Assembly: GCA_002269645.1 (NCBI GenBank)
Contig: NIVC01004373.1
Location: forward strand, 1 to 48,145
Origin: Macrostomum lignano
Lineage: Eukaryota
DNA length: 48,145 nt
Direction of reading: 5' to 3'
Below are positions 17,903-45,284 of this stretch, piece by piece (positions within the stretch are counted from its first letter, which is position 1; the number at the start of each line of letters is the position of its first letter). A program made the position numbers and the translations under genes. The notes beneath the pieces were generated by a model that was given only the letters and a program-made list of their open reading frames with translations, had not been told where the DNA came from and did no database searches.

Positions 17903-17984
<82 letters not shown>

Positions 17985-18899
17985 CACGGCATGTTAAATT
18001 ATTTAATTGAAAGTAGGCTACCGGTTTCAAGCATCTGGGCTCTTCGTCAGGCCAAAAAATAGAGAGAGAGGGGGGAATGTAGAGAGGAGATAGGGGAGAA
18101 GAGAGAGGGGAGATAGGGAGGGGGGAGTAGGCAGAGAGACGGGAGAAGAGAGGAGACAGGAGAGAGAGGAGAGAGCGGAGAAGAGAGAGGAGAGAGGAAA
18201 GAGGGGAGAGGGGAGAGAGGGGAGAGTAGAGAGAGGGAAGAGAGAGGAGAGAAAGAAGAGAGAAGGGAAAGGGGACTAGGAGAGGAGAGAAGAGAATAGA
18301 CACAAACCTTGAGCGGGTTGGACTGCAATTGTGAAGCTTCAAAGAACCCAAGGGCCGGGCCTCGAGAGAGGCTTCGAGGGCTGAATGTGACACGCGAGTC
18401 GGAGTTTGCCAACCCCTGCTCTATCCAATTATAGGACCACTGCATTTTCCAACCTGAAGTTACCAACCTGTTTAGCCAGATCAACAGTAGGCAGCAACAC
18501 CAGCGCTGCTGGCTTATTCCTTGCACCGCTAGCATTATCGGCAACCAAGTTGGACTGATCAATCCAAGTTTTAGCCACAATAGGCAGCAGGTAAGCCAGT
18601 GACTTGCCACTACCAGTTGGTGCATAGGCCAGTACATTCCTGGACTGCATTAGCACTGGTACGCATTGCATTTGAATCGGTGTGGGCTCCTGATACTGCA
18701 GTCTGACAGTGATATTATGCAACAGTTTAGTTGGCAAGCCAAGGCTGCTAAACATTGAATCGAAATTCTCTTCAGGCTGAGGAATCTCATCGCCAACAAC
18801 GCGAATATAGTGACGCTTGCGCAGGCCTTCAATTGCACTCATACTACTAGTAGTAGCATTAGCAGTAGTAGCCAATTTTGAGTAAGTTTTGTTTTTCAT
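13732..18899 (-). CDS. DDX52: DEAD-box RNA helicase DDX52/ROK1-like, multi-exon gene
   Basis: Exons (>=18899)-18468, 17489-17197, 16626-16457, 15583-15162, 14022-13732 with GT-AG borders and matching phases. Motifs: Q (PTPIQMQ), [43 protein letters not shown], and a basic C-terminal tail. The 5' start is uncertain and an upstream exon is possible. Confidence 0.88.
14079..15140. repeat. Graded 21-bp minisatellite family interrupted by a 266-bp insert
   Basis: Units GATCTTGTGAATCTGATTAGG, GATCTGGATAACCCGATTAGG and GATCCTGATAATCCGATTAGG. Confidence 0.93.
14717..14982. mobile_element. MITE-like insert with G6/C6 ends and internal inverted sub-repeats
   Basis: Starts GGGGGG, ends CCCCCC. TTTCACAAGGTCGAAA copies on the left are mirrored by TCGACCTTGTGAAA on the right. 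CAATTA occurs on both flanks. Confidence 0.5.
15162..15583 (-). CDS. DDX52: DDX52-like helicase C-terminal domain exon
   Basis: [12 protein letters not shown]...[11 protein letters not shown]...[15 protein letters not shown]. Confidence 0.92.
15620..16390. repeat. Degenerate GA-rich minisatellite, intronic
   Basis: Recurring GAGATTAGATAAGA...GCTTGAGATGGAG. Confidence 0.8.
16457..16626 (-). CDS. DDX52: DDX52-like exon with SAT motif
   Basis: [23 protein letters not shown]...[13 protein letters not shown]; acceptor CCCCAG|A, donor G|GTAATC. Confidence 0.88.
16733..17190. repeat. 15-bp minisatellite, intronic
   Basis: Unit CTCTGCACACCCCTA. Confidence 0.95.
17197..17489 (-). CDS. DDX52: DDX52-like exon with DEAD motif
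   Basis: MLVSTPQRL...[13 protein letters not shown]; acceptor GCCAG|GTG, donor AG|GTTTGT. Confidence 0.9.
17594..18418. mobile_element. hAT-like non-autonomous element with GA-rich interior
   Basis: 15-bp inverted repeats AGGGGTTGGCAAACT (17595-17609) and AGTTTGCCAACCCCT (18403-18417). No matching 8-bp TSD seen. Confidence 0.5.
18468..18899 (-). CDS. DDX52: DDX52-like exon with Q motif and Walker A
   Basis: [17 protein letters not shown]...[12 protein letters not shown]...[11 protein letters not shown]; donor CAG|GTTGGT at 18468/18467. Confidence 0.88.
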
Positions 18900-27540: not shown

Positions 27541-30059
27541 TTGAATTGAATTGAATTGACTTAATTGAAGACAATTGATTGCTAGAAATGGATTCATGCT
27601 TTATCAATTTAAGCAAAGGTGCTTAATCCAAACGATTTTTTGGATTGCAGCTGTCTTGCCAGCATTATTCAGGAGTCAAATCATTGGACGGGAGTCCGCA
27701 TGTCAATGAGCATTGTGAAAACTGAGTTGACAATTGAGTCCATTTTTGATACATCATGGCCTTTCTAGCCTTGAATTTGAAACATGATTGGCAAATGGAA
27801 AATGTCAATGAGACTGTTCAAAATTTTTCTGAAGCTCCAAAATCCAAAGCGGGCTACTAATCAATTGATTAAGTCTGGTTAGCATTCTGCCAATATAGAA
27901 CATAAACTCAAATTATCTATGCATCTCCCTGCATGCAAGCATTTGCAGTGAATTAACATTTTATTAGCATTTTTAGGTATTGCTTAAATATCCTATTCAT
28001 TGAATTGAAAGTGAATTGACAATTCAAAATGACCTCTGTCAAGGAAAATTAGGTAAATTTATGGGGGGGGGAATCACTGAAAATCAGGGAAAGTGGTAAA
28101 TGTTTAGGGAATTTATTAGAGATTCAAAAATCACCTATTATCACCTTCCTAGAATTGCCTACCTAGAATTGCCTACCTAGAATTGCTAAAAACCAGGGAA
28201 TTTTCAAATAATCAAAGAATACTATAATATCTAGAATGTGGTCACCCAGATTGTCACAGGTTGGGTTAATTTTATTTTTCATGTGCTACAAGTACTAAAA
28301 TGTGTAGCTAAATTAAGGCCATAAATGTGGCCAAAAGTATAGTGGCTAATATTGGGACACTTTCAGCCACTCCTTGGCCACTTTTGTTTGGCCACCTTTT
28401 GGCCACTTTTTGTTTACAATGTGAGTCATTGACAGCTGTGGCACATCTGGCAATGTGGATATACATCAACAGCATGCCATCAAGTTCTAGATTAGGCGCT
28501 TCAAGGATTCTATTACAACAGCTATCGAGGGACTTGTGGCACAGGTTGCTCTCTAGAAAAGCGCATCAATCAACAATAGGTACGAGCAGCCGCAGGCAGT
28601 CCTCAACAGACTTGGAAAATGATCAATTTGTGGCCTCTGTACATTTGTTTTATTACTTTACCAAGCTTCAGAAAAGAACTGGTAAGAGAAAAAAAGTGAA
28701 TTTTTCAATTATTTTTAATGTTCATAATTGCTGTGACCTTACTTTTGAACTTTATAAACAGATGATAATAAAAGTTTTAAAAAGATGATTTATAAAAAAT
28801 ATAAATTCTATACATACCTAATTCTTCTTGATCTCCATATACTCAACATCCTTTCACATCATAGGCTCCAAGTCTCCAAGGCTGTCAATGCACATCAGTG
28901 CATGACACATGCCTATGTATGCTTAGCAATATGCCTCTCTGATGCAATGCAGCAAGTGGTTAATTGGTCAGGTCACATGGCTGAGCAGTGCAAAAGTGAG
29001 CTGCCAGCCATAGAAGTTATGGATTCAGCGCTAGCTATGCTATGGATATATTTCAAGGTGAGGTAGCAAATCATTCATTCTATGTGGTTTTATAATATGT
29101 GAAAAACAATTCTAAAACATGGTCAATATATGTTTGGAAATAAGGGTATTTTCATTTTATATTCAAATAGGAGATATAGAATGCAGAGTGGACAAAAACC
29201 AAACAAAATTTTATCCTTGGTAAAAAACAGTTAATAGGACTGCTAATGAAAATTTCTTTTCTACCACTGAAAGTAGCAAAAAAACAAAAATTAATTTTCT
29301 GTATAAGTGCTACAAAAAATTATACAACTTCTACCATAGACAGTTGTGCTCATCTACCTGGATGAGAAATCAAGGCCATCAGAACAGGCCATCGAGAAAG
29401 AAATAGCACGCATCCTAAAGCATGCTGCTCAAAGGTGTGCAGCTTGCCAGGAGCAGCTGTCATTTCCAGTCCCTGCTGCTGCTGCTTCTGCTGCTGCTGC
29501 TAAGTTGTTGTGTTTCCCTGTTTTGTACTAAAGCCTTTATTATAAAACACTCATATATGAGTATTTACTTGAATACTTTTAACTCTTGTGCTTTTTGATG
29601 ACATTTTAATTTGGATTAATTTTTTAACTAATTAGTTCAAATTTCAGTTTGCTTGACATTCTTTCTTTAATTATTTTTTTGTTTTAAATGTTCCATTTCA
29701 TTTTCACAATTTTTTTATCTTGCTTGAAAACATTTACAGGAAATTTTTTGCAATTTGCATAATGCTAAGTACAAATATATATGTTGAACTTACAAAAAAA
29801 CAATAATGAAGCAGTAAAATTTGAGCAACAAATAAGCAAATTTAATTCTTTACATTTGAGTATTTAATTTCTTTAAATGTCTACTCATAATAGTATATAT
29901 AGTGCAAACATCTGTCTGTCCTAAAACTGTCCGAAATTTTTGTTTTGTCAGCATCTGCATGACCATATTTGGATGTACATAAGGGGTACTTGTGGACAAG
30001 GATAATTTGTTGTCTGTCAGATGCAACTTTTTACACTAGGAGGCTATTTGCCTCACATT

Positions 30060-30163
30060 AGTAGTATACGTTTTTTTGACACAAAGCCGATTTCCTTATG
30101 GCGAAATACATAGTAAGTACAGGCCCAAAAAAATGGCAGAGTCCGAAATTTCATGTGCACGCA
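30060..30163 (+). repeat. Left terminal inverted repeat
   Basis: The first 84 bp are identical to the reverse complement of the right end; 4 mismatches over 104 bp. Confidence 0.97.
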
Positions 30164-30619
30164 GTCTGAAATTCCATGTGCACGCAGTCTGAAATTCCAA
30201 GTGCACGCTAAATATCTTTTACGCAACGTGATTATTCAGACGAATTGCATATCCACCTGTCCAAAATACAAGTAACCGATTCTAGCAATGGTGACACAAA
30301 CACACTTCAAAGGATTCCATTCAAGACAAATTTACTCCAAAGCTATTCACACATTTCAAGTGTTTTTGAAATATTGAAAACTTGTGAATATTATCACCCT
30401 TTTGAAGAAAGATAGTAAATGATCTATTCTTGAGTGCCTATAGAATTTTTGCACCAACTTGAGCAGATGGTTTACAGATACTATGTCAACAACTGCGTCA
30501 ACATGCTTTTCTTTATACTATATATATATATACGAACACACTGACACAGAAAATATTAAATAACTTAAACCAAGTTTACATTATACTACTTGTTCAACTA
30601 TACTTACATCTTAAGTGAA

Positions 30620-31481
30620 ATGAAGCGATCACGTCAGCAGGAATTGGCCGAGCGCTATGTTAAACAAGGTAAGATAATCACCTACTCTAGTTCAGTTTTC
30701 TTTTTTAGATTGACTGTTCGCTATAGTTTAGTTTCTAGATTGATTGTTAGTTCGGTTTCTGTTTAGACCGATCCTCTGTTTGTTCAGTCTCTAGATTGAT
30801 TTTCTGCTAGTTCGGTTTCTGTTTAGACTAATACTCTGCTAGTTCAGAATTTCTAGATTGATTGTCTGCTAGTTCGGTTTCTGTTTAGACTGATTCTCTG
30901 CTAGTTCAGTTTCTATATACATTGTATACATGCACCTATACCAAATTTCCCTCATCTTATCCATTATTATAGCATTCAAGAATGGTTTCTTCACGCGGCC
31001 ACCTCCAGATCAGTGCAAACGCATTTGCCACGACACCACCACATCCAATTCTGCTGCAAGAGCATCATATTCTACATCTCTCGCCAGAGTAACCTCGATT
31101 CATGTCGAGAGACAGACAACTGAGCTAGATCGCATTTACACAAGAACTGATGTTATTCAGTCAATTAGGCAGCAATCGAACCCACGACCAACTGACCAAC
31201 TGCAGTATGCACCACCACCACCATCACCAACCAGCTACAATGACCCAACAAAGCAAACTTGCAGTAAGCCTACAAGTACCAAACCAACGACAGCAACTGA
31301 AACACCATCATCATCAATTGCTATTTCTACCCAAGTTCAACCGCTGCTAAACTCGCCAATTATTGTACAGAAGGACATCAAGTCTGTAAAAGTCTCTCAA
31401 ATGAGCACAGGCTTCTACCAAGTAGAATTAGCAAAGACCTGTAATACAACTCAAGTATTTGAATATTGGGACCTATCTTAA
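30620..31481 (+). CDS. Maverick ORF1, spliced (30620-30668 + 30973-31481), Ser/Thr/Pro-rich protein of unknown function
   Basis: Exon 1 MKRSRQQELAERYVKQ, donor AAG|GTAAGA, acceptor TTATAG|CA. The phase-1 join is in frame with the 30930 ORF. The intron contains a small tandem repeat. Confidence 0.65.
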
Positions 31482-31734
31482 AAAGACATTTTTTCTAACT
31501 CTTCATAAAATTTTGCCAGCAATGTGTCCAAGTAATTGCTCTTTTAGTATATATCAAACAAGTCTGTAATCAATAATATAATCTCTATAAATTCATTATT
31601 CTAAAAAATTCTTTCAATTTTATTCGCCATTCATTGAAATTATTTAATTCAATATAAAGTCAATATCTTGTACAGTCATCATTAAACAAAAATTATTAAT
31701 CCATGCAAATAATTTTTTTTCATACGTTTCTTTA

Positions 31735-32420
31735 GCCATGGTCTGGCTTTTGCCTCAACAGTATGATTTAGCTGTGGTCCAGCTTTTGCCTCAACAGTAT
31801 GATTTAGCTGTGGTCCAGCTTTTGCCTCAACAGTTTTTAGCCGTGGTCCGGCTTTTTTGCCTCAGCAGTATGATTTAGCTGTGGTCTAGCTTAAAACTGC
31901 ATCAACAGTGATTTAGCTATAGTCCAGGCTTAACTACCTCAACGATGATTTAGCTATAGTCAAGGCTTAACTGTCTCAACAGTAATTTTAGCTGTTGTCC
32001 AGACTTAACTGCCTCAACAGTGATTTTAGCTGTGGTCCAGGCAACTGTCTCAACAGGGATTTAGCTGTAGTCCGATTAGCTTAACTGTCCAGTTATTTAG
32101 CTGTGAGCCAAGCAGCAGCACCCGTCTCAACAGTGAGAATTAGCTATGGTCAGCTTTACCTCAACTGTGATTTGGCTGCTGTGGTCTAGCATAACTGACT
32201 CAACAGTAATTTTAGCTGTAGTCGTCCAGCTTAACCACCCGTCCAGTTTTATAACCATGGTCCAGCTTAACCACCGTCTCAACGTACAGCGATTTAGTCG
32301 TGGTCCAGCTTAACCGTCTCAACGTACAGTGATTTAGCCATGGGTCTAGTAGCAATTAACCGTATCAATAGTGATTTAGCCGTGGTCCAGCTTAACTGTC
32401 TCAACACAGTAATTTAGCTT
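31735..32420. repeat. Degenerate ~33-40-bp tandem array inside the element
   Basis: Core CTCAACAGT..GATTTAGCTGTGGTCCAGCTTAAC. Confidence 0.85.
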
Positions 32421-33129
32421 AGTCCAAACAGCATTTGTGTGTCAACTGCACTGACTGCATGCGGTTATAGCAGCGGCAGTCATTATAGTCCCAACAAGCT
32501 GCGCGTCGCAGCATGATAGTGTAACTCTATATAGCTTCTGCTCAATATAGGACTGCAAAAGCTGAGTTACAACTATACCTTTTTCTGTTTGAAAAGTAAC
32601 ACTCTATATATAGGTTACTCAAGCAATCTCTTGTCACCGTGCGAGCTAAAAAATTCCAACATGCAAGCAAAACTTTCAATAAATTAATTTCATAGCACCG
32701 CGTGCAGCTTATTTTTACTCTAAAATCCAAGATTGCTAATTTTTCAAGTCGCAAAATATTTTAATTACATTCTACTTGAGAACAAAACCAATCTAATGAA
32801 GCAGCAACCAGCAGTCTTCTTATTAAACGCTTGCCATCGTGTTACTCTTGCAAATTTATAACTAGTGTGCCTAAGATTCATTAATTTTATTGTATAAAAT
32901 ATCAACCTACATTTGCGTAAAATTAGACCTAATCATGCAACCCACCCTAGAAACTTATGCCACCTTTGGCACGCAACAATGTCTTAATCAGCACGCAACA
33001 ATTAAATTTGTTTACTAGTTCACAAACAGCATGCAAAGCTTGCTATAAATACAAGACCCGAAATGGTCAATTTTTCATGAGCTCAATCATTACAGCAAAA
33101 GAAATACTATATTCAATTGCTTGTAAGAC

Positions 33130-34328
33130 ATGGCAGCTTGCATCAAGACGGAGTCAATTGTACGCTCCGACTCGAGTCCGATTTTTTACGTTGGAGAGCA
33201 GTCTACAACCACGACTGGTTCGTCCTGCCAGTTTCGATCTATTGCGTGGAAACCATCAATCGAGTGTACAAAATGGTACCCAATTATATTGCAAACCAAG
33301 GCTCCAATGGAGCTTTTTCGTGGAATCGCAGAAAGGCCAGAGCTCGATCATCCGTCTTGCAGACACGACTCTCGCGACGCAGTAAGTGTCCAATTTCATC
33401 CAGACAGCTGCGATAAGGAACTCTTCCACTCTCTCCGGTGAGCACCATATTAAATTTATACAATTAATTTTAGGAAACTATATTCATAATTTATATAATG
33501 TTTTGCAGTCAAGTCGAAAAAGGTCTATCGGTCAAGTTGAACGAGATTCAAGATGCTCGACCCTTGGCACGACTAACAAAACCAGCTCATCAGCATGCTA
33601 ACGACGTCCTCGAGTTTGTGCCTCAACAATGGCTGGCTATAAAGCCTGCTTACCCTTGTGCCACAATCAGGATCAGCAACGATCATCCACACGGGAAGGA
33701 GGTGTCCATTTCCGATTTCAAAGGTGTCAGCGGTACCTACCAAATGACAGTGCAAGCAACGAGCTTGTATTGTCCAAAAGGCTGCCTCGTCTGGCGCATT
33801 ACATTCGCTGTGCGCTCTCTGACACTCATAGAATCTTCCGACAACATGTTGCAGCGCCTCGACATGTTCAAGGGAGTGCTTGCACACCTACCCGCGACCA
33901 AGTCAGCAATTAGAAGCAGGAGTCCGTCCCCAACATCTACCTGTGAGCAAGAAGAAGCAAATGAACAAAGCCTGCAGAATTCAAGCCAGGTGACACCTGC
34001 CAAGTCACCTGCAAAGCGTCGGTCTACCACCACCGTATCGAAGAAGTCGACTACATCGAATGCAGCGCCAGCCTCTATTGAACCGCCGCCTAAAAAGCAA
34101 GTTCGAAAACGCAGCGGTGCAAAACAGCAAAACAATTCTGCCGAAGCTGGTGCAGATGGCACAGACTGGGTGGAGGCTCCACCAGCAAAGATCTTGGTGA
34201 GTACACCTGCCTCTGGAACCAGGGTAGCGTCCAAGGAGACAGCATTTTTAAAGCGTGCTGCTGCGGACGCTACTACAGCTAGCGTGTCTTCATCGGACGA
34301 CTCGTACAGCAGCTCTGATGATGAGTAA
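33130..34328 (+). CDS. Spliced ORF (33130-33437 + 33509-34328, 375 aa), putative OB-fold ssDNA-binding protein with acidic tail
   Basis: 71-nt AT-rich intron CG|GTGAGC...TTTTGCAG|T joins the two tracked ORFs in frame. Motifs PIILQTKAPM, ELFHSLRQVE and WRITFAVRSL resemble T7 gp2.5-like/NCLDV SSBs; tail SDDSYSSSDDE. The function is inferred. Confidence 0.6.
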
Positions 34329-34538
34329 CAAAATTTTTGACTAATTTTATCCAAGTTTTAACTAACTTATTCCACTATATTTATCAAATTTTTGGCTAGG
34401 GAAATATTATTTTTTAGGGAAAAGCTCAAAACATTTTTTGCTACTCCTTGTACGCTAACCAGGTTTTGTAATTTAATATTAGAATTTACGATAGTATAGT
34501 CATGTTTAACTTTTCTTATTATTTATTTTCCGTTTTAG

Positions 34539-35096
34539 CGACTTGTCCTATTAATAGTTACTGCGAGTCTGAAGCTGCACCCGTTTGAAAAATTTGATTT
34601 AAAGCAGACCAAACAGAAGCTACAGACCAGAAACCGGTTTTGCAAACTATTCCTAAGCCGACCAACAATGCTAAAGACAATTTATTCAAATGCTAAAATC
34701 CAACTTTATCCAGCAGGAAAACTAACTATATATGGCTGTAAATCAAATTCTCAGATAGTCTCAGTTTTACGATTTATCAACGACACTATTAATTGTGTAG
34801 ATTTTGATTCAGTAAAAATTCAGAGCAGTACCTATGTCGGCTTTATTGGTCATCTTTGGCCAAAATTCGGTTTCTCTAGTCTAAAAAGATATGCAGGCTA
34901 CTATTCGAATTATCTGGTTGGATACGATGCAGAAAATTTCCCACAAGCAGTTTCTGTTAGATCAGCATCAAAACCAAGGCTTTTTTGTAACATATTTTTT
35001 TCGAAAAAGTTTGTTATTATGGGCGTTCAAAACACTCATGAATTGAATAATATTCTTAACCATGTCAAGGATTTTTTAATCTCTGTTAATAACTAA
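34539..35096 (+). CDS. TATA-binding protein (TBP)-fold protein; coding exon opens at a splice acceptor upstream of the tracked ATG (34668)
   Basis: FDLK, NRFCK, QLYPAGKLTIYGCKS, VKIQS, YDAENFPQ and KPRLFCNIFFSKKFVIMG align by eye with both TBP core repeats (LDLK, KRFAA, LIFSSGKMVCTGAKS, FKIQN, YEPELFPG, KPRIVLLIFVSGKVVLTG). Confidence 0.82.
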   Translation, partial: RLVLLIVTASLKLHPFEKFDLKQTKQKLQTRNRFCKLFLSRPTMLKTIYSNAKIQLYPAGKLTIYGCKSNSQIVSVLRFINDTINCVDFDSVKIQSSTYVGFIGHLWPKFGFSSLKRYAGYYSNYLVGYDAENFPQAVSVRSASKPRLFCNIFFSKKFVIMGVQNTHELNNILNHVKDFLISVNN

Positions 35097-35319
35097 ACTT
35101 AACAAGTAAACAATTGCTGTCAAATCGCAGTTGCGATGCATTCTTTTACAAACATTTTGTCTTTTTTTATTTATTTACCAATTGTTTTCTCTAATAGTAA
35201 ACGTGTCAGCTATACCTATAACTAACCAAATCATCATTTTTCTTACAGCCGCAAATGACAAACCGGATCATCTATTAATATTATGCTCGATACGCTCGTT
35301 GTCGAGCTAGGTGCACACA

Positions 35320-36033
35320 ATGCCGCGTGCACAATGCCAAATCTGCAGAAAAAAGTTCAGTAATCAAGCCGAGCTGCATGCTCACTCGCATGGTGCTTGT
35401 TTTTCACCGCAACGATTACTGACCGGATCGCTGCAAAACCTGATCGAAAACCCACCAGATGGGTGGTCCATCGCTTTGCGCGAGTCAGCTCATCGTGGTC
35501 GGGTAAATTTTGTCGAATTTACTCCCACTCTTGAACAACAAGGCAACAGCTCTGGCGAGTTACTTCCTGGCGAGTTGATTGCGTCTTTAAGAGAACCAAT
35601 ATTTAAAATATTGGAAAAAATTGGCTCACCCAGTTTATTAATAAGAGTCTGCTTTCACTTGAAAGTGACACTATTTCGACCGAAAACAGCAGCAGACGAC
35701 AACGATGGCTCGAGCAGCGAAGAGATCATTTCGGTCTATTTTAATACCAACATTGCGACAATATCATTTGATGAGACGATTGCAAACAGTGACATGCTGT
35801 TATCTCCCGAGGCCTACAATGACTGGTTCGCACGCGTTATTAATCAGTTGTTAATAAAAATTGACAATTTTCAATCTCGAGGTAGTAATTGGCAATATAG
35901 AGCAATCGAGCAGCTAGACTTGATGCTCTGCGTTTATCGCAAAAGCCATGCAAGCACACTGTCAACAAATACGTCCCACGGTGGTGTGGGGGCGGGCGGC
36001 GGCAGTGGTGGTGGTGGCGGCGGTGGTGGTGGT

Positions 36034-36065
<32 letters not shown>

Positions 36066-36396
36066 GCGCGGGGAGTCCGGTCCAGTCCGGTCCGGTCCAG
36101 TCCGGTCCGGTCTGGTTAAGCAGCAATCGTTTAAAGTTCCAGTCTCAATCGGTCGCAAAGCTGGAGCAGTACTGCTTCTAAAGCCGCACAGAGCAGTTTA
36201 AAGCATCAAGACTATTTAAGAGTCTTACACAAGCGACAACTTGTGTTTTCGCGCATACAGTCCATTCGTTCTCGAAAACAGAAAGTTTTTTTTGATGCAA
36301 CAAAGAAAACTTGCACTAAGCTTCTTCGATACGAAGCGATCCTGGACAAGTTCAATTAATTCGCTACCCTTTGGACACTGGCACTTGGCTAATTAA
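35320..36396 (+). pseudogene. Truncated protein-primed DNA polymerase B: C2H2 finger plus N-terminal (terminal-protein-like) region, poly-Gly insertion, broken CF motif; no exonuclease or polymerase domain
   Basis: CQIC-X12-HAHSH; IDNFQSRGSNWQYRAIEQLDL and FKVPVSIGRKAGAVLL resemble the Polinton pPolB N-terminal F..EGSGW and LP....KKAVIN motifs. Stops at 36199 and 36217 precede SDNLCFRAY. Confidence 0.6.
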
Positions 36397-36688
36397 TTAA
36401 CAATATGCTCTGATCTCTTTTGTTGTACAAAGTAATAGCATGCTATAGAAGACTGTAACCCATCATTAATTTTTTCATTGATCATTATTTACAATAAATA
36501 AATGATACCGGCATTCGTTTAAATTATAATTTTAGCACTTTTTTGTGTTTAATTATTTGAAAAAGTATATTTTTTATAGTTAGATTCTCAAGACTAAGCT
36601 TGTGTTTGTAGTAGACGTAAATGTAGTGCTATCGTTCATGTTTCAAGAAAAAAAACTTTTTTTTAAACTTTCAGCTACAAGAATCGAC

Positions 36689-37171
36689 ATGAATCCCGAG
36701 CAGCAGCAGCAACAACAACTAACTGATCGTAAGCTTTTAGTTGAACGTCTATACGATTCGGCAACGATTCCGACCCGAAAAACTGTCGGGTCGATCGGGT
36801 ATGATCTTTGCGCTGGCGTCGATGGTACCATTCCGGCCTACGAGTCCCGGAGTGTGCGAACCGGACTCAAAATTCGCTTACCGCCTGGTACCTATGGCAG
36901 GATAGCGGGACGTTCCAGCATGGCTCTGCACAGCTTATTTGTTGGCGGTGGCGTAATCGACCCCGACTATACTGGTGAAATCTGTATAGTCTTGTTTAAT
37001 TACAGTCCGGAAGACTTTGAGTACTATGCCGGGCTCAGTATTGCACAACTGGTTCTGGAGCAGGCCGTGCTTGCTTCAGTCTATGTGACTGAAGCAGACA
37101 ATTCGATTCGGATGATTGAGCCGCCGACCAAGCGGCGCGGCTTTGGCGGCTTTGGCAGCACTGGCCAATAA
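36689..37171 (+). CDS. dut: dUTPase (trimeric type)
   Basis: All five motifs present: GSIGYDL, GRSS, GVIDPDYTGEI, IAQLV, RGFGGFGSTG. Likely ATG at 36689. Confidence 0.95.
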   Translation: MNPEQQQQQQLTDRKLLVERLYDSATIPTRKTVGSIGYDLCAGVDGTIPAYESRSVRTGLKIRLPPGTYGRIAGRSSMALHSLFVGGGVIDPDYTGEICIVLFNYSPEDFEYYAGLSIAQLVLEQAVLASVYVTEADNSIRMIEPPTKRRGFGGFGSTGQ

Positions 37172-37241
37172 GTATAATAATAATAATAAACTGATTTTTT
37201 TCTTTGGTGATTGGTGCACTATGCGAGAGCTTTGTAAATAC

Positions 37242-37250
37242 TATAAGCAA
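37242..37250 (+). promoter_or_regulatory. Candidate late-promoter TATAAGCAA (first of 8 TATAAG sites upstream of virion-module genes)
   Basis: Other copies at 38405, 39448, 39843, 40679, 42064, 42416 and 43753, each 21-158 nt upstream of an ATG. Confidence 0.55.
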
Positions 37251-37262
37251 TTTTAAAAATTT

Positions 37263-37706
37263 ATGCCTAAAATATATGTTGTAAAAATGTCTCCAGCGAA
37301 AGATCGAGGTTTTAAAAAGAAAAAGAAGAGCATTCGTAAAAAGAAGAAATCTATTAGAAAGATTAATAAAAAGCAACAAGGTTATGGTGTCGTAAATTGG
37401 TTAATTAATCATTTACCATTTGAAGCACATTTACCCGGCGGATATCAGTTTTGTGGTCCAGGTACGCAACTGCAAGCTAGGCTAGCAAAAGGACAACGAG
37501 GAATTAATCGGCTTGACAATTTGTGCATGCTTCACGACGTGGCCTATGATAAAAATTCTGACGTGCAAGAGAGGTTAAAAGCTGATAAGCTATTAGAATC
37601 TGGTGCACGAGAGATTGCCCACGATCCGTCTACTGGTTGGAAAGAAAAACTAGCTGCGAAGTTGGTTACCAAGGTTATGCAAGTTAAGCAACGCTTTGGT
37701 GCTTGA
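37263..37706 (+). CDS. Virion protein with basic N-terminus and parvovirus-VP1-like phospholipase A2 domain
   Basis: HLPGGYQFCGPGT (calcium loop), GINRLDNLCMLHDVAYD (HD dyad). Confidence 0.9.
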   Translation: MPKIYVVKMSPAKDRGFKKKKKSIRKKKKSIRKINKKQQGYGVVNWLINHLPFEAHLPGGYQFCGPGTQLQARLAKGQRGINRLDNLCMLHDVAYDKNSDVQERLKADKLLESGAREIAHDPSTGWKEKLAAKLVTKVMQVKQRFGA

Positions 37707-37708
37707 AA

Positions 37709-38398
37709 ATGCAGCAGCCATACAATATGCAACTAGCTCACGATTCTACATTTATTATTGCTGGACCTTCAAACTCGGGTAAAACTGAATGGACGTTGCG
37801 TTTGTTGACTGAACGAAAAGAATTATTTGATAAAAAACCGTGCCGTCTTGTTTGGTGCCATGGATCAAGTTTGAAACCAGACGATCAACAACGAATTAGA
37901 ACATGCTGGCAAAAAAGCGGTCTTGACCCTATTGTTTTTGTACCCGAATTCACACCACAGATGATTAATCGTTTTTTACCACACGATTTGGTTGTTGTTG
38001 ACGACTTGCAAAGCGAGATTGCTAAGTTGCCAGAATTTACTAGTATGTTTACAAAGCATGCGCATCATATCCCTTTGACTTGTCTGTACCTTTGTCAAGG
38101 TCTTTTTAACAAGTCTGATCCAGAAGCACGCATGCGAAGTTTATCAGCTAGTTATATTTGTCTAACTCGTAGTGTGCGCGATCGAACCACAGTTGAACAT
38201 CTCGGTCGACAAATGTATCCGCGTAATAGTAGGTTTCTAGTGAATGTGTATGAAGACGCAACAAATAACAAACCTTTTTCATATTTATTCATTGACCTGC
38301 GGCAAGTGACACCAGATTTTTTACGATTGAGAACAGGAATATTTTCTGGTGATGAACAAGTTGTCTATACTCGTGAATGTGATGCAAAGTTTGTGTAA
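37709..38398 (+). CDS. A32/FtsK-like DNA packaging ATPase
   Basis: Walker A AGPSNSGKT, Walker B VVVDDL, FTKHAHH, YLFIDL; typical Maverick ATPase. Confidence 0.95.
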   Translation: MQQPYNMQLAHDSTFIIAGPSNSGKTEWTLRLLTERKELFDKKPCRLVWCHGSSLKPDDQQRIRTCWQKSGLDPIVFVPEFTPQMINRFLPHDLVVVDDLQSEIAKLPEFTSMFTKHAHHIPLTCLYLCQGLFNKSDPEARMRSLSASYICLTRSVRDRTTVEHLGRQMYPRNSRFLVNVYEDATNNKPFSYLFIDLRQVTPDFLRLRTGIFSGDEQVVYTRECDAKFV

Positions 38399-38455
38399 TA
38401 TTATTATAAGCAAATTATAAACTGTTGTCAATATTAGTTTGTGTTTTATTTCAAA

Positions 38456-39445
38456 ATGAGTTTTTACGTTTTTTTGCCGTCAAACGATATCAGTTACGAA
38501 ACCAACTCGCCTAATGAATTTCGAGTGCGACTAACTGAACCAATAAATTTATTGAACGGATTCTTCGAGGTTGCACTAGTTGAATTACTGTGCCATGGAG
38601 CAATTACGACGCCAAATGCTCATCGTGAGCGTCGATTTGAAGTTCCATATTTTGCGGACATTGACTCAATAATACGATTAAAGAAAAACTATTGGGGTCG
38701 TGTTTGGGCAGAGGCAGACTTGGATGCTTACGTTTCCTGGCAACCGTCTGGTACAGATGAAAAATTTGCCTGGCTTTTACGAAATTCAGGCGAAAAAACT
38801 ATTGGATTAGAACTACCAGTTACATTTATGGACGCTTTCAAATTTGACTCTTGGAAGAAACTTTCTGGACTTGTCTCGGAAAAATTATCAAAACCTGCCG
38901 CTGGTAGTGTACAACCACCGGATGGTTCATACTTGGATTTGATAAAAAGTCTCGACAATACTCTAGCGCTAGTACCTGAGAACTATTATGTTTTTTATTG
39001 TGTTCTATCGCCTGGTGAAGCTATACGACTTGTTTCGCATGGAGACTATCTTCGAAAAACGGAAGGAGAAGTGTACATCAAAGTACACCAATATTGGTTG
39101 AGAAATCGTGTTTGGCGCATTAACAAAACCTACTTGGATGCTGTGCTACCTTCTCCGATGCCTAGTAAAACGGTTTACATGTACTGTTACACAGATATAA
39201 TCGAGTATCAAGCAGTGGGAAGTACATCAGTACCGTTGCTTCGAGTTGTGGAACTCCAACAAAAGAAAAACGGAGAACTTATACGCGATAGCAGTGCATT
39301 GCAAACACCCTACTACTTGAAAACAAATCGACAACAAATTCACGAGATTTCGATTCGACTATCGGACCAGCGCGGAAAACCGTTTAATTTTGATCCGGGA
39401 GCACACGTTGTTGTCGTACTGCATTTTAAACATAGGTCGGACTAA
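38456..39445 (+). CDS. Minor capsid protein (penton, PX)
   Basis: FYVFLPSN...NEFRVRL...FEVALVEL at the N-terminus; YCYTDIIEYQAVG...VPLLRVV and EISIRLSDQRGKPF...VVLHFK at the C-terminus. Confidence 0.9.
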   Translation: MSFYVFLPSNDISYETNSPNEFRVRLTEPINLLNGFFEVALVELLCHGAITTPNAHRERRFEVPYFADIDSIIRLKKNYWGRVWAEADLDAYVSWQPSGTDEKFAWLLRNSGEKTIGLELPVTFMDAFKFDSWKKLSGLVSEKLSKPAAGSVQPPDGSYLDLIKSLDNTLALVPENYYVFYCVLSPGEAIRLVSHGDYLRKTEGEVYIKVHQYWLRNRVWRINKTYLDAVLPSPMPSKTVYMYCYTDIIEYQAVGSTSVPLLRVVELQQKKNGELIRDSSALQTPYYLKTNRQQIHEISIRLSDQRGKPFNFDPGAHVVVVLHFKHRSD

Positions 39446-39501
39446 TTTATAAGCAAAGATTAATTGTGTAATAGAAAATTTTGTGAATTTGTTTTGTAAG
39501 A

Positions 39502-39930
39502 ATGAGCGAACTAACAGAAAAAGGAAAACAAAATGCTCGCTCATTGTGTCAGTGTGCTTTTTTACTACAAATTGTTTATCGGCTAAAGCATCCAAAGCAG
39601 AGAAAAAGTTTTTTACAAACACTTTCAGAGTCGGAGATACGATGTCTAGTAGACTTTCTGTTTAATATTATTAGTGGACGTATTAAAATTAGTAACTGTA
39701 ACAAAAGACGACTTGAGAAGCATCGCAGATATATACGCCAGCTTTTGGAACAGAAGACTCCAATTACTGCAAAAAGGAAAATACTTGTCCAACACGGAGG
39801 ATTTTTACCTTTTTTGGCTCCAATTATTGCCGCTCTACCTGCTATAAGCACTGCGCTTGGGATAACGTCTGGAGTAGTTGGTACCGCCGCGGGAGCAGCG
39901 AATTTAATACGATCAATTCAACGAAAGTAG
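39502..39930 (+). CDS. Small basic core protein with an adenovirus pX-like GGFLPFLAPIIAALP tail
   Basis: Basic N-terminal half, then GG followed by a hydrophobic helix similar to adenoviral pX (GGILPLLIPLIAAAI). Confidence 0.75.
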   Translation: MSELTEKGKQNARSLCQCAFLLQIVYRLKHPKQRKSFLQTLSESEIRCLVDFLFNIISGRIKISNCNKRRLEKHRRYIRQLLEQKTPITAKRKILVQHGGFLPFLAPIIAALPAISTALGITSGVVGTAAGAANLIRSIQRK

Positions 39931-39940
39931 TAGGAATATA

Positions 39941-40630
39941 ATGCGAACTAACGAGAGTAGTAGTTTTCAACGAATGTATCTAGTACCTGAATCTGTGTAT
40001 CAATCTGCATGTCAAGGTGCAGAGCAAGGATCGTCACCAACTGCTGAGACACCTCGAAAAACTGAAGTTTTAGACGCACCGCAAGATGCTCTGGCAAAAA
40101 ATATGGTGGAAATGAGAGACCAAATGGATAACTTGGACAAGGAAATGGAAAAGGAGCCAAATTACACAGCTCAATTGAAACGAAGCAGATTGGAAGACAA
40201 ACTTTTAAAATTGCGCAAAGTCTATCGCACTGGAGACGAGGACAATCTGTCACTTGTTCGCAAAGGGACTACTGTAAGAAGTTCATATGCCAGCGAATCA
40301 AGGGAAATTCCTAAAGTTTTTTTACCACGTTTCGAAGCTCTCGCTCAAAACCTATTTTCGGACATGGACAAGAATGCAGAACCAATGCTGGCTAATTTGA
40401 CTGATGCCGAGATACAAGATCTCATGGAATATGTTGTTCGAGACAGACCGCTTAAGCGACACGAGACTCAACCGCCTAGTGGACTAAAAACATTTTTAGA
40501 CTTTCTTCGAAAACGTGGAATCGCAGCAAACCAAATCGGGCGTCATGTACGAAACGAGCTAATGTCTGCTCCAAAAACTGTTGCAAAGGAGGATCTTAGT
40601 CTGTTTGAAAATTATCAAACACTGAATTAA
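39941..40630 (+). CDS. Maverick hypothetical protein (RMYLVP N-terminal motif)
   Basis: 229-aa open frame in the gene cassette; MYLVP resembles the KMxLVP start of conserved uncharacterised Maverick ORFs. Confidence 0.75.
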   Translation: MRTNESSSFQRMYLVPESVYQSACQGAEQGSSPTAETPRKTEVLDAPQDALAKNMVEMRDQMDNLDKEMEKEPNYTAQLKRSRLEDKLLKLRKVYRTGDEDNLSLVRKGTTVRSSYASESREIPKVFLPRFEALAQNLFSDMDKNAEPMLANLTDAEIQDLMEYVVRDRPLKRHETQPPSGLKTFLDFLRKRGIAANQIGRHVRNELMSAPKTVAKEDLSLFENYQTLN

Positions 40631-40742
40631 GTTGTTTTAAAATTACAGATTACGTTTTAACAAAATTGATTCGAGCACTATAAGCTTTTTAAAAAGGTTA
40701 ATTTTTTGTTTATGAAAAATATATAGTTTAATAAGACAAACC

Positions 40743-40931
40743 ATGTCATCTATCTTCCAAAAACTTTTGATTCGTCTCTGTGAGTTTTTTTGCATAAAAT
40801 CTGAATGTGTGCCGTTTCTGGGAAAGGAGCACAACGAGGATACTGACGGAGATTCGATCGAGGCTTCGTTCTTTTGTTGCAACTGTCAAACGACTAGCAT
40901 CAATCTAACTGATGATGAAGCGAGTGCGTAA
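40743..40931 (+). CDS. Small Cys-rich protein overlapping the integrase start
   Basis: 62 aa, CEFFC and FFCCNC, good ATG context, preceded by TATAAG. Confidence 0.5.
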   Translation: MSSIFQKLLIRLCEFFCIKSECVPFLGKEHNEDTDGDSIEASFFCCNCQTTSINLTDDEASA

Positions 40932-42072
40932 GGAAATTGAAGAATTTTTGACGGATGCTTTTTTTAACTTGAACAGGCCTACTTCATTTAGTGGTAACAA
41001 GACTATACTTGTTCGTGAAGTACGTAAAAAGTTTCCACAGATTACGAACAAAGTTGCAAAGCGCGAAGTTGATAATTGGGTGCGATCAACAAATGAGCAT
41101 CATTTATTTCGAAAAACACGACGAAACTTTCCAACTCCAAAAATTAGTGTGCCACCAGTTGCAAAGTTTCAGTTTCAAATCGATTTGGCAGATTTACCTC
41201 AATACAAGACGGAAAATCGAGGTTATCGTTACATACTTGTTCTTATCGACTGTTTTACTAGAGTTGTACGACTAAGACCATTGCGTACAAAGAAGCCTTC
41301 AGAAGTTAGTCAAGTATTACTAGAGATTTTTCGAAGTGGTTTTAAGCCTGTTTATTTACAAGGTGATGCTGGTATGGAGTTTCTCGGAAGAGCTACACGT
41401 CAAATGCTGAAACAGGAAGGAGTTCGATTTTTTGTTAGCCAAAGCAATTACAAGGCAAGCATGGCTGAACGATTTATCCGCTCGTTAAAGGAACGTCTAT
41501 TACGATACTTTCGAGCAAAAAATTTACCTCGATGGTTTGACATTTTACCGCAATTGGAAGATAATTTCAACTCTAGTCCTCATCGATCCTTGAGTGGAGA
41601 AACACCAAAACGGGTAGAGACAGACCCGCATTTACAAGGAATTTTGTGGGACAAAATGTTTGCGAAGTCGTACACTAAAAAGAATGAGAATAAATTTAAA
41701 GTTGGTGATTGGGTTAGAATTACACGACGTCGAGGAACATTTGAAAAAGGATACACTACGACTTGGAGTAATTCAAAATATCGCATTCATCGTGTACACT
41801 TGACAGACCCGCCAATGTACGAATTAGTGGACCCTGAAGATGGATTTGAAGTGCTGAAAGGAAGGTTTAACCAAGCGGAACTAATGTTGGTAAACGAGAC
41901 AGATGAAACACCTAATGAAATTGAAAAAGTTATTGAAACTGATCGAGCGAAAAATGGAAGTCGTCTGTATCTAGTAAAATGGAAAGGTATGCCAATCTCA
42001 AGAAGTCAGTGGTTAAACGAAAATGATCTTGACGCAAAGACTGCTAAACTATTTTCTAAAGTGTATAAGTAA
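40912..42072 (+). CDS. Retroviral-like (rve) DDE integrase with C-terminal chromodomain
   Basis: QIDLADL, LQGDAGMEF, SMAERFIRSLK; chromodomain EIEKVI...YLVKWKG...SQWL. Confidence 0.97.
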   Translation: MMKRVRKEIEEFLTDAFFNLNRPTSFSGNKTILVREVRKKFPQITNKVAKREVDNWVRSTNEHHLFRKTRRNFPTPKISVPPVAKFQFQIDLADLPQYKTENRGYRYILVLIDCFTRVVRLRPLRTKKPSEVSQVLLEIFRSGFKPVYLQGDAGMEFLGRATRQMLKQEGVRFFVSQSNYKASMAERFIRSLKERLLRYFRAKNLPRWFDILPQLEDNFNSSPHRSLSGETPKRVETDPHLQGILWDKMFAKSYTKKNENKFKVGDWVRITRRRGTFEKGYTTTWSNSKYRIHRVHLTDPPMYELVDPEDGFEVLKGRFNQAELMLVNETDETPNEIEKVIETDRAKNGSRLYLVKWKGMPISRSQWLNENDLDAKTAKLFSKVYK

Positions 42073-42113
42073 CACATGAATTGGGATTGCATGACGAAGA
42101 GAAGACTGTTGAA

Positions 42114-42572
42114 ATGGATCCTATTTTTGCTTTTTATTCTGGTCCGAATAGATCTGCTGAAGGTGGAGGTGGATATGGCATTCCTGTTTACGAAGGTTAC
42201 GGTTTTTTGTCAAATTTGGCGGACAGATTGGTGTATCCTGTACTACGCAACGCAAAGAAAGATTTCTTGGATCGTGGTCTGGAGTATTTGAAAAGTGCGA
42301 CAGCAAAAATTGGTATGGGTCGGAAGCGTCACTTGGACACAGAATCGAGCGAAGAGATGTTTAATACAACTGCAGTTTCGAGACCAAAGCGAAGGAAAAG
42401 AACCAGTGGAGTGGCTATAAGCTTAGGAAAGAAGAAACGGCAAAAGAAACGACGAACAAGACAGTGTGGAAAGGGACGCGTGAACAAAAGAAAACGCAAG
42501 AAGACCGGTGGTATAGGAAAACGTCGAACTGCTACTGCAAGCAAGAAACTTTTTAGTCTGTTTGAAAAGTAG
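42114..42572 (+). CDS. PZ-like virion protein with Lys/Arg-rich tail
   Basis: GGGGYGIPVYEGYGFLSNLADRLVYPVLR resembles the Maverick PZ G-x-G/amphipathic motif; basic C-terminus. ATG at 42114. Confidence 0.7.
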   Translation: MDPIFAFYSGPNRSAEGGGGYGIPVYEGYGFLSNLADRLVYPVLRNAKKDFLDRGLEYLKSATAKIGMGRKRHLDTESSEEMFNTTAVSRPKRRKRTSGVAISLGKKKRQKKRRTRQCGKGRVNKRKRKKTGGIGKRRTATASKKLFSLFEK

Positions 42573-42573
42573 C

Positions 42574-43896
42574 ATGAACCATTTGCTTGGACCTGATATT
42601 GCTGCTCTTAAAAGTGAATTGTCGCTATTTGATCAAAGTCCTGTTCAGTTTAGTGTTTTGGATAATCGATATACTAACATTCAACCGCAACATGGTATTA
42701 CAAAAGGATCACCTATCGAATTTGAAGTTGTGCCTGCAGGCGATTTGTATTTGGATCTACAAGAAACTGTGCTCACGGTATGCTTCAGCGTTAGTGATAG
42801 TGAAGGTGAACCTATAGATGCAACGAAAAATTTTGTTTGTTTGAATAATTTGGTTATTGGAACATTGTTTGAGGACGTTCAATTTACTATTGGCGATACT
42901 GTAGTTGAAGGTGGTAGTTTTATGTATCCATACAAGGCTATGCTTCTTACATTACTGGAATATGGACATACAGCTCAGAAGGCTGGTTTACTGCCGTGGG
43001 GGTTTTACAAGGATACAGCTGGTAAAATGAATGCAACAAGTGAAAACGATGGACGAACAAAGAGGCAGGCGCTCATTGCTAACAATAGGCGGTGCACTGT
43101 ATCGGGGCCGTTATTCTTGGATTTGTTTCGTCAGCCTCGGTATCTACTATCAAAGACACCACTACGGATCAAGCTCATACCGGCAAAAAGTAAATTTGTC
43201 CTGAGCGGGTCAACATTAGAAGCTGGTGCGGTTTTAAAAGACTATGAGATCAAGTTTTTGCGTGCAGAACTACGATTGCGGTTTGTTCAACCCTCGCCGA
43301 GTGTTATCAGTGCACATGCTCATGGACTTAAAAGTCACAATGCATTATATCCGCACCGAAGTCTAAGCCTTGGTACGTTTACTATACCCCGAGGATCGTC
43401 TAGCCATACGCATGAAAATTTGTTTCCTAGTGGGGTACCACGGCTTTTATTGATGGCAATCGTAAGCAACAAGGCATTCAATGGAAGCATGGACACAAAT
43501 CCGTTCAACTTTGAGCATGCAAATGTGAGCAGCATTGGTGTGTTTGTGAATGGAGACTCGGTACCATCGCGTCCGCTGCAGACAAACTTTGGAGATGATT
43601 GTGTGACAGAGTATAATTTTTTGCTACAACAGCTTGGAATCTATCTACAGGGACGAGATATTGGATTTAATATGCTGGATTACGCCAATGGTTACTCAAT
43701 TTTTGCATTCAGTCTTGGAAGTGAACCTGGTGTCGGACGGGGAGTGCAACTGTATAAGGAAGGAAATGTAAAACTAGAGTTACGCTTCAATGCTGCAACT
43801 AGTACCGTGTACAACGTCATATTTGGAGGTATATTTGACAAGCAACTGCAACTGACTGAACTTCGCGACATTGTTCCTGGCACAGTATGGAAGTAA
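42574..43896 (+). CDS. Major capsid protein (double jelly-roll, PY/hexon)
   Basis: KSELSLF, PIEFEV, LYLDLQET, YPYKA, GFYKDTAG, DLFRQPRYL, AFNGSMDTNPFNF, GNVKLELRF. Confidence 0.96.
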   Translation: MNHLLGPDIAALKSELSLFDQSPVQFSVLDNRYTNIQPQHGITKGSPIEFEVVPAGDLYLDLQETVLTVCFSVSDSEGEPIDATKNFVCLNNLVIGTLFEDVQFTIGDTVVEGGSFMYPYKAMLLTLLEYGHTAQKAGLLPWGFYKDTAGKMNATSENDGRTKRQALIANNRRCTVSGPLFLDLFRQPRYLLSKTPLRIKLIPAKSKFVLSGSTLEAGAVLKDYEIKFLRAELRLRFVQPSPSVISAHAHGLKSHNALYPHRSLSLGTFTIPRGSSSHTHENLFPSGVPRLLLMAIVSNKAFNGSMDTNPFNFEHANVSSIGVFVNGDSVPSRPLQTNFGDDCVTEYNFLLQQLGIYLQGRDIGFNMLDYANGYSIFAFSLGSEPGVGRGVQLYKEGNVKLELRFNAATSTVYNVIFGGIFDKQLQLTELRDIVPGTVWK

Positions 43897-44450
43897 TTGA
43901 TTCTATCCTAGATCGTGGTGTAACAGATCGCTTCCTTCGCAATGTTGTATCGAAATTGTGCGCACATTTTTTAAATGTTGTATTTCTTGGTGTTTTTCCT
44001 CAAAACTTTGTTGGTGGACTTAGACGCTTACCTTTAGACGGTAAAGACTATTTTTTTATCGTTAATACTGACGTCTCCAACCTGCCCGGAAAACATTGGG
44101 TATGCGTTTGGGTTTATGGTCATCGAGCAGGTCGCGGTAGCAAACGACTTGGTGAATATTTTGATTCTCTTGGTCTAGTACCATTGCCAAGAATAGCAAA
44201 ATGGCTAGGAAAAGAATGTGGAAATTCGAAAAATTGGTGTTATAGTCGCTTTGCTATCCAAGACCCACAGAGTGGAAGTTGTGGATTTTGGGTAATTTTT
44301 TATATTTTTCATAAGTTGACTACCAGAGGAAACCTAGAGTGTTTTATTCGAAGCGTTTTTAAACGGAATATAATTCGCACTGGTTCGTTTCGATACTTGT
44401 ATGCTAAATTACGCAATTTTGTTTTACGAGTGCTGCCTCAATATTTGTAA
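43887..44450 (+). CDS. Adenain-like cysteine protease
   Basis: IVNTD...GKHWVC (His), EYFDSLG (Asp), IQDPQSGSCG (Gln/Cys). Confidence 0.95.
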   Translation: MEVIDSILDRGVTDRFLRNVVSKLCAHFLNVVFLGVFPQNFVGGLRRLPLDGKDYFFIVNTDVSNLPGKHWVCVWVYGHRAGRGSKRLGEYFDSLGLVPLPRIAKWLGKECGNSKNWCYSRFAIQDPQSGSCGFWVIFYIFHKLTTRGNLECFIRSVFKRNIIRTGSFRYLYAKLRNFVLRVLPQYL

Positions 44451-44684
44451 ACTCGCTAATTTGTGCGTCAAATTGTGTTTGTATCTAGTTGAAATATACA
44501 ATACTGCTTGAAAAGAAGAATTTAAATGCGTTAAGTTATACGCAAAATAAGCTTTGTGTCAAATTGAATTTTGGTTGGGCTTGTAATTAGCTGCATTCAT
44601 TGCGGATAGAATTTAGGTGGATAGACAGGTGTTTGCGTAAAAGTGATTCAGCTAATTGGTTAATTCATTGCGTAAAAGCTAGTT

Positions 44685-44788
44685 TGCGTGCACGGCAAAT
44701 TTCAGACTCTGCCATTTTTTTGGGCCTGTACTTACTATGTATTTCGCCATAAGGAAATCGGCTTTGTGTCAAAAAAACGTATACTACT
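44685..44788 (-). repeat. Right terminal inverted repeat
   Basis: Ends ...CGTATACTACT, followed by the TSD CACATT. Confidence 0.97.
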
Positions 44789-45284
44789 CACATTCACATT
44801 TACCTATTAGGTTTTATAAAATTGACTAACTTTGCTCCATAAGTTTGCTCTATATGAACTAATTGACTTCAAACTTGACACAACTTTTTATAGCTTTATT
44901 CTTTGTCTAAATATGGTCTTAACTCTGTAACTCAAACAGAACAGAAATTCTAAGCTTATGAAGTTTGTAATTTTTTCTGTTGTTTACTGCTTTCACTTAT
45001 TCCTACAAACTAAGGGCCAGGCAATAGGGCTCAGTCTTCATAGCAAATGTACAATGTTATGGAATAAATTTATTTTTATAGCCTTCTCTGCACCTTCACA
45101 TATGGAGAGGCTATATTCAGCCATGATAATTTAGTGAGAAATTCAAAACACTGTGCTCTATATAGGCAAACTCTGCAGCAATTAAACAGTAGATGGCAAA
45201 TCAAGGCAATGCAAAATACAATGCTATTAAATTGGTCACACCATGGAACTTTTAACATTAAATTTCACTTAAAAGTTTTTTAAA

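Follow-up and report, generated by a model that had tools for sequence, protein, structure and literature searches.

A Maverick of the flatworm Macrostomum lignano without a polymerase catalytic core

The element and its gene complement

We describe a Maverick of 14,729 bp at positions 30060-44788 of a 48,145-nt stretch of Macrostomum lignano DNA (contig NIVC01004373.1; the whole stretch is referred to as the window), with its core genes all on the + strand. An earlier note on this DNA, made from the sequence alone, had described the ends and the target-site duplication of the element as perfect; on comparison the two TIRs are 104 nt long, are identical over their first 84 nt and differ by 4 mismatches, and CACATT stands on both sides.

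30054-30059, + strand: left target-site duplication CACATT (comparison of both flanks)
30060-30163, + strand: left TIR, 104 nt, beginning AGTAGT (end motif as in excerpts of PMC8097293)
31731-32418, no strand assigned: degenerate 36-40 nt tandem arrays of the left arm (repeat scan)
44685-44788, - strand: right TIR, ending in ACTACT (TIR comparison)
44789-44794, + strand: right target-site duplication CACATT (comparison of both flanks)

The non-coding left arm holds further tandem arrays, of 23 nt at 30140-30208 and of 32/62 nt at 30724-30915, and three overlapping open frames of 103-142 aa at 32957-33441 are without a family match. On the right side the duplicated hexamer is tandemly repeated (CACATTCACATT), and the right flank (44789-45200) is itself a host repeat with many variant contigs. 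Elsewhere in the window, the minus strand of 15150-18899 carries exons of a host DEAD-box helicase with repeat-filled introns, recognised by eye from their motifs.

33498-34328, + strand: 276-aa ORF with an acidic tail, a possible viral ssDNA-binding protein (a lead from Atlas likeness)
34539-35096, + strand: TBP-like gene, probably with an upstream exon (PF00352, E 2.3e-7; 185-aa open frame after pyrimidine-AG)
36638-37171, + strand: dUTPase (PF00692, E 1.5e-29)
37263-37706, + strand: PLA2-domain virion accessory gene, PLA2X-like (PF08398, E 3.4e-9; excerpts of PMC8502044)
37709-38398, + strand: packaging ATPase with intact Walker A/B (alignment with relatives)
38456-39445, + strand: probable minor capsid protein, named from position and size; its C-terminal 86 aa alone matched relatives
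39502-39930, + strand: pX-like core protein (PF05829, E 2.3e-6)
39941-40630, + strand: 229-aa ORF without family assignment (ORF list, Pfam)
40912-42072, + strand: rve integrase with chromodomain, D-D-E present (Pfam, alignment with relatives)
42114-42572, + strand: 152-aa basic ORF without family assignment (ORF list, Pfam)
42574-43896, + strand: major capsid protein, 440 aa, full length against relatives (113 relatives)
43887-44450, + strand: adenain-type protease, H/D/C present (PF00770, E 0.038; alignment with relatives)

The integrase, ATPase, capsids and protease had been called intact, and this is borne out by the DDE, Walker A/B and H/D/C residues and by the open major and minor capsid ORFs. 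Nearly all of the 113 relatives of the major capsid protein are 24-47% identical to it, with two (P0005 and P0006) at 67%; we take this family to be that of the major capsid protein. The minor capsid candidate has matches in 55 of 80 related loci (the best 80 of 283). The first 140 aa of the 276-aa ORF resemble, in the Atlas, clusters of DUF2738 and DUF5871 (0.93 and 0.92, family labels that rest on 10-15% of cluster members) and of Pox_I3 (0.89) (giant-virus clusters), families which presumably bind ssDNA and on which its candidacy as an SSB is based; its AlphaFold model (pLDDT 33) has no usable fold. No TFIIB partner of the TBP-like gene was recognised in the element. A replacement helicase or replicase (SF1/SF3, Tlr1/PLV type) is absent, the single Walker A in the six frames being that of the packaging ATPase, and the largest unassigned ORF of the element is at most 329 aa. 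Ten window proteins looked up in an exact-sequence collection gave no match, as did scans of viral contigs and of a phage collection with the element.

Intact Mavericks have (AGT)2//(ACT)2 ends and a 6-bp target-site duplication (PMC8097293, excerpts). The element has such TIR ends, a 6-bp duplication and a retrovirus-like DDE integrase and, judged from similarity, also the major and minor capsid proteins (the minor one matched only over its last 86 aa), packaging ATPase and adenain protease of the Maverick/Polinton lineage. It is a member of this lineage, yet not an autonomous one: the catalytically complete pPolB (TP-vOTU-EXO-PALM) of autonomous Mavericks is not present.

What remains of the polymerase gene

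35320-35976, + strand: C2H2 finger and terminal-protein (D1) domain of pPolB (Pfam, profile, AlphaFold, Foldseek; excerpts of PMC11161782)
35977-36116, + strand: Gly-rich linker of (GGC/GGT)n and (GTCCG)n repeats (sequence, repeat scan)
36113-36195, + strand: interval with the deletion junction (left part compared with the vOTU start; bridged by X1 record 4)
36195-36396, + strand: C-terminal ~66 codons of pPolB, with a frame break inside and the native stop at 36394 (P0003, reference C-termini, shuffles)
36493-36502, + strand: overlapping AATAAA signals that follow the native stop of the polymerase gene (sequence; putative role)

The 293-aa ORF at 35320-36201 contains, as had been reported, a C2H2 finger and a GSNW motif, the finger as a weak match below the cut-off (PF00096, E 0.017) and GSNW at 35881. 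In a single-sequence AlphaFold model of residues 1-219 (pLDDT 65.7) a sheet is combined with two long helices, and Ser189 of GSNW lies between helix 163-186 and strand 192-207; excerpts of PMC11161782 describe the TP/D1 domain as a 4-5-stranded sheet with two helices and, in the loop that leads from helix 2 to the last strand, a Ser or Tyr next to Gly. The N-terminal domain as modelled has TP/D1 topology, and Ser189 is the predicted linking residue. Of the three Foldseek matches below E 0.001, one is an adintovirus C2H2 protein (E 1.2e-7) and another the PolB of a MELD virus (E 3.5e-4). Among solved chains, the top nine belonged to Y-family polymerases; the matches lay in or near the little-finger domain, with middling Z scores of 4.9-5.7 and rmsd of 3.0-5.0 over 98-114 residues, and TPs are said in excerpts of PMC11161782 to derive from this domain. 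By sequence the TP domain is 45% identical to P0003, a relative labelled Macrostomum lignano by its source, and an Atlas search with it returned zinc-finger leads only. Two 199-aa TP-like proteins, P0004 and P0118, lie on contigs of 1-2.3 kb and end just past the TP domain; these are possible natural stand-alone TPs.

No exonuclease or polymerase motif had been seen between the TIRs, and DTDS, ExoI, ExoII, motif A and motif B are indeed absent from the six frames; two loose ExoIII-pattern matches and two DTD matches lie elsewhere in the element, where polymerase context is absent. Among the best 80 of 283 related loci, seven have pPolB-type ORFs (four near complete, two identical over the compared parts), which were named pPolB from their motifs and gene order because Pfam and PDB sequences gave no name, L016 and L014 being recognised in neither search. 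A profile of these seven ORFs (1124 positions) was run over 677 six-frame segments of the element. The three top-ranked segments were the 293-aa ORF, at profile positions 49-93 (E 0.011), and a pair of overlapping frames, one at 1055-1096 (E 0.43) and the other at 1084-1123 (E 0.015), while for positions 94-1054 nothing fell below E 2 among the 677 segments; as a control of sensitivity, the polymerase part of P0003 matched all seven reference ORFs at E 5e-16 to 5e-11. The slot upstream of the ATPase holds a pPolB-type ORF in seven of the eight related loci that have at least 1.5 kb there. The eighth locus, L004, is 20 kb long and carries an ATPase, a split integrase, capsids and a protease, with no match to the reference pPolBs. 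The polymerase catalytic core is absent from the element; of pPolB only the two ends are left, which supports an internal deletion, and comparison with the four near-complete relatives puts the missing span at 2790-2862 nt.

The earlier note had taken the gene to be reduced to its N-terminal part, and here it has to be corrected, as pPolB has kept its C-terminal end too, spread over two frames. In the comparison with P0003 (E 2e-14), 36150-36290 aligns at 43% and 36289-36387, in the following frame, at 67%; when the break is bridged by an X, the final 72 codons share 51% identity with the C-terminus of P0003 (E 4e-23) and match five of the seven reference C-termini at E 1e-5 or better. Clear C-terminal similarity begins at 36195, and the frame break falls within a T8 run at 36286-36293. 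In 5000 shuffles of the C-terminal polymerase frame none reached the whole-frame score, and three did so for the stretch under SDNLCF. Against pPolB C-termini frame A scored p 0.03, but this match was misregistered and was discarded. The likeness of 36113-36180 to the vOTU start fits by position and is not significant (p 0.14-0.19).

This C-terminal frame changes how several features of the region are to be read. The in-frame stops at 36199, 36217 and 36394 and the peptide SDNLCFRAY are there as listed before; in the polymerase frame the first two stops are the TTA-A of Leu-Lys and Leu-Arg, and SDNLCF is a shifted reading of RQLVF. The view of SDNLCF as a decayed vOTU motif does not hold, as it overlaps the C-terminal coding frame and lies 26 codons and two stops past AVL. 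The vOTU of pPolB has its catalytic Cys (DxxCF) ~10 residues past the AVI strand, a spacing of ~10 residues being kept by the relatives in this comparison, together with a His, and no such domain was found in the element. Exact DNxCF occurred in 2 of 20,000 shuffles of that frame (a looser form in 974 of 20,000), so an off-frame motif would be an unlikely coincidence, and this counts against the reading that we prefer below. The AATAAA noted at ~36494 was found at 36493 and 36497. Because 36195-36393 is the pPolB C-terminus, the stop at 36394 and the AATAAA signals form the 3' end of the polymerase gene itself, and reading them as the place where a stand-alone TP gene ends is either mistaken or superfluous. 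Judged by these alignments, the pPolB gene carries an internal deletion of ~2.8 kb and not a C-terminal truncation; its TP domain is followed, out of frame, by the last ~66 codons, themselves frame-broken.

Copies of the element in sequencing runs

Half or more of the words of 34600-38400 are contained in 20 runs from 8 studies, among 24 runs listed; none of the 20 is given as RNA, which has no bearing on expression. Contigs of four runs from four studies (X1, X5, X12 and X13) were placed on 32600-45200, with the left 2.5 kb of the element and 35988-36121 lying outside the placement. The earlier note had asked for a check of raw reads across the junction region: an unbranched contig of X1 (record 4) bridges the junction and the T8 run, covering 36122-36967 with no differences and no gaps. 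Its depth of 14.5 corresponds to 65% of that of the element and exceeds the flank at 45073 by a factor of 4.4; the contig speaks against a collapse in the assembly. Because X1 is possibly the assembly's own source, this contig excludes a joining error but does not amount to independent biology. In a second study, X12 record 12, which starts at 36258 and has 95% of element depth, shows no change in the T8 run. The junction is bridged directly in one of the four runs, and no piece lies over it in X5, X12 or X13 among the 32 of 693 pieces listed. No indel at the T8 run was seen among the 12 of 37 indel rows listed (rows at 14-16% of depth among them), no loose end at 36113-36195 among the 24 of 158 listed, and none of four joints fell there.

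Near-identical contigs of several kb occur in all four runs, and the absence of substitutions from 4.8-kb contigs of X1 and X5 indicates that the family is young. Behind the TIR, mixed flanks were found in two of the four runs (two contigs in X5, three in X12). The ratio of element to flank depth is 19 in X13, on a contig through the site's own flank, 7 in X1 and 52 in X5; contig depth is not copy number and these ratios differ widely, so they are read as several to many copies only. The different TIR flanks and the 19:1 ratio point to many near-identical insertions. The other flanks and the junction lie on separate contigs, and depth over 35968-36388 does not discriminate deleted from full-length copies; from contig depth and flanks together we infer that near-identical copies sit at several insertion sites and that the polymerase-dead form prevails among them. 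The suggestion of a recently mobile deletion derivative agrees with the near-identical contigs in four of four runs, the other TIR flanks in two of four and the bridged junction in one of four.

A minority sister lineage, at 7-42% of depth, differs in the TBP, TP, ATPase and 3' spacer. With 11 of 40 listed rows excluded as fixed differences, flank or outside open ORFs, 15 of the 29 listed minority sites in ORFs are at third codon positions (p 0.03). At 36257 the base of the window predominates in X1, occurs beside others in X12 and is absent from the contigs of X5 and X13, so that the subfamily make-up differs between samples. The bases of the window at 33037 and 44544 are unlike all or most of the contig depth in the four runs, and may be private mutations or assembly errors.

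Probable multiplication without a polymerase of its own, and known systems

We consider it probable, with some reserve, that the element belongs to an amplified young family of non-autonomous Mavericks that is mobilised in trans by a related pPolB. An internal deletion would have removed ~2.8 kb of the gene, including the vOTU, exonuclease and palm. The pPolB of a related Maverick in the same genome could then prime on the intact AGTAGT ends and copy the element, and the element's own integrase, capsids, ATPase, protease, dUTPase and perhaps SSB may perform the remaining steps; the 293-aa TP product may be just what the deletion spared. A full-length helper pPolB was not found in protein searches, which were weak: a search for longer proteins containing the TP returned only P0001, and in one with the C-terminal piece, which missed even P0003, none of five candidates scored. 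The 5994-aa bacterial repeat protein P0002 was rejected, its score being summed over 27 repeats and without a tblastn match to the element. Helper candidates can be named only loosely, as the minority sister lineage, the family with a 67%-identical capsid (P0005, P0006) and the family of P0003. The last is a related family with motif C, whose annotated product is without exonuclease, motif A and motif B.

The gene models of two of these proteins are unusual in themselves. In that of P0003 the TP helix runs straight into the polymerase shortly before motif C, which could be a second internal-deletion family or an intron of the annotation. That of P0001 is chimeric: its TP, dUTPase and 39941 ORF pieces are 100% identical to the element, its Gly repeat is of another length, and it also holds two Ty3/gypsy-like gag-pol blocks, as of a copy beside, or hit by, an LTR element.

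As a special case of trans-mobilisation, the 293-aa product might work as a stand-alone TP that primes for a borrowed polymerase, as the split TPs of adenoviruses do. The predicted TP fold with Ser189 kept in an open frame would suit this, as would the TP split from vOTU-pPolB in a coral polinton (PMC11161782, excerpts) and the 199-aa P0004, which ends just after the domain; against it, the ORF runs into off-frame sequence, as if the deletion had simply spared the 5' end, and the stand-alone TPs described in those excerpts have helical extensions that are missing from D1 domains. We hold this version to be possible but doubtful. With similar doubt we raise the idea of a virion-competent, polymerase-less Maverick acting as a defective-interfering satellite in the germ line, which would outnumber a rare helper, supply its own TP, SSB, capsid and integrase, and borrow the polymerase only. 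If this were true, protein-primed replication would work in trans between endogenous Mavericks, and there would be a natural route to the split TP of adenoviruses.

It is unlikely, in our judgement, that the window holds a single dead copy, deleted after insertion here or at one ancestral site, with the depth arising from segmental or chromosome duplication of the host and with full-length copies at the other sites. Most Maverick copies of vertebrates are defective (96%, in excerpts of PMC8097293), the junction is bridged in one run only, the make-up of the copies varies (the 36257 base is the majority in X1 and absent from X5 and X13), and the window bases at 33037 and 44544 differ from all or most reads. 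Yet the X1 contig over the junction has no branches and reaches 65% of element depth, the dominant X12 contig carries the frame break, X5 and X13 have no listed high-depth loose end or indel at the junction or T8 run, and the other core ORFs are all open.

Less likely still is movement with no pPolB at all, in which the integrase would excise and reinsert the element and host repair or replication would restore copies, as for cut-and-paste transposons. Integrase and ends are intact, the weak protein searches found no helper, and butterfly polintons amplified after loss of polB by a route that is left open in excerpts of a preprint (10.1101/2025.02.07.637071). The open capsid, protease, ATPase and dUTPase frames would be unexplained, however, except by extreme youth of the family; the enzyme could come from existing sister lineages, and similar polB-bearing copies are present in the butterflies, according to the same excerpts. 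That an assembly collapse lost the polymerase is scarcely credible and already largely refuted: a GC-rich repeat adjoins the junction and the contig placement omitted 35988-36121, but the junction lies to the right of the omitted repeat (C-terminal similarity from 36195) within one unchanged X1 contig, and P0001, from another record, is a weak indication in the same direction, being also without polymerase residues between TP and dUTPase.

To our knowledge, the replication and movement of Mavericks in animals have never been shown directly. Their particles are also described as unobserved in excerpts of PMC8097293. A family that is without the catalytic part of one gene and has seemingly multiplied is a clean natural test of trans-complementation, in a well-sequenced host, with the stretch contained in those 20 runs; surveys in which pPolB is a requirement overlook or throw out such families.

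Short non-autonomous Polintons in Repbase keep their ends, have the catalytic gene deleted and are mobilised in trans. The same is described for internally deleted non-autonomous DNA transposons (PMC3014272, excerpts), whereas here one of ~15 genes is lost and the element retains its own integrase and virion set. With autonomous Mavericks/Polintons of the Alpha-adintovirus type, as presented in excerpts of PMC8502044 and PMC8097293, the element shares TIR ends, 6-bp duplication, integrase, ATPase, capsids, adenain, PLA2-domain and pX proteins, and the pPolB slot upstream of the ATPase. In that slot it has a remnant only, with no vOTU cysteine, exonuclease or palm, and it measures 14.7 kb, or ~17.5 kb with a missing part of the length found in relatives. 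Tlr1 elements and polinton-like viruses likewise combine a virion module with the lack of a typical pPolB, but those described in excerpts of PMC5499653 carry a replacement helicase or helicase-polymerase, whereas the only Walker A here is that of the packaging ATPase. In the split-TP systems covered by excerpts of PMC11161782 (adenovirids, PRD1 and a Stylophora coral polinton) a TP-fold protein is also encoded on its own ORF; these encode the polymerase as a separate gene, whereas here there is none and the TP ORF ends in off-frame sequence.

The closest parallel is with polintons of the butterfly Pieris mannii, which are TIR-flanked, polB-less and apparently amplified, and for which excerpts of a 2026 preprint pose the question of mobilisation (10.1101/2025.02.07.637071; further background in excerpts of 10.1101/2023.08.22.554363). 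In those excerpts the loss of polB coincides with LINE or gypsy cargo, whereas the element described here has a clean, cargo-free internal deletion that keeps the TP and the C-terminal end. Among the literature matches listed, in which subscription journals are thinly covered, there was no cargo-free, TP-keeping internal-deletion family and no paper on the Mavericks of this flatworm. Amplified polB-less polintons have thus already been reported from butterflies, and the cargo-free internal deletion that keeps the TP is a variant of this kind.
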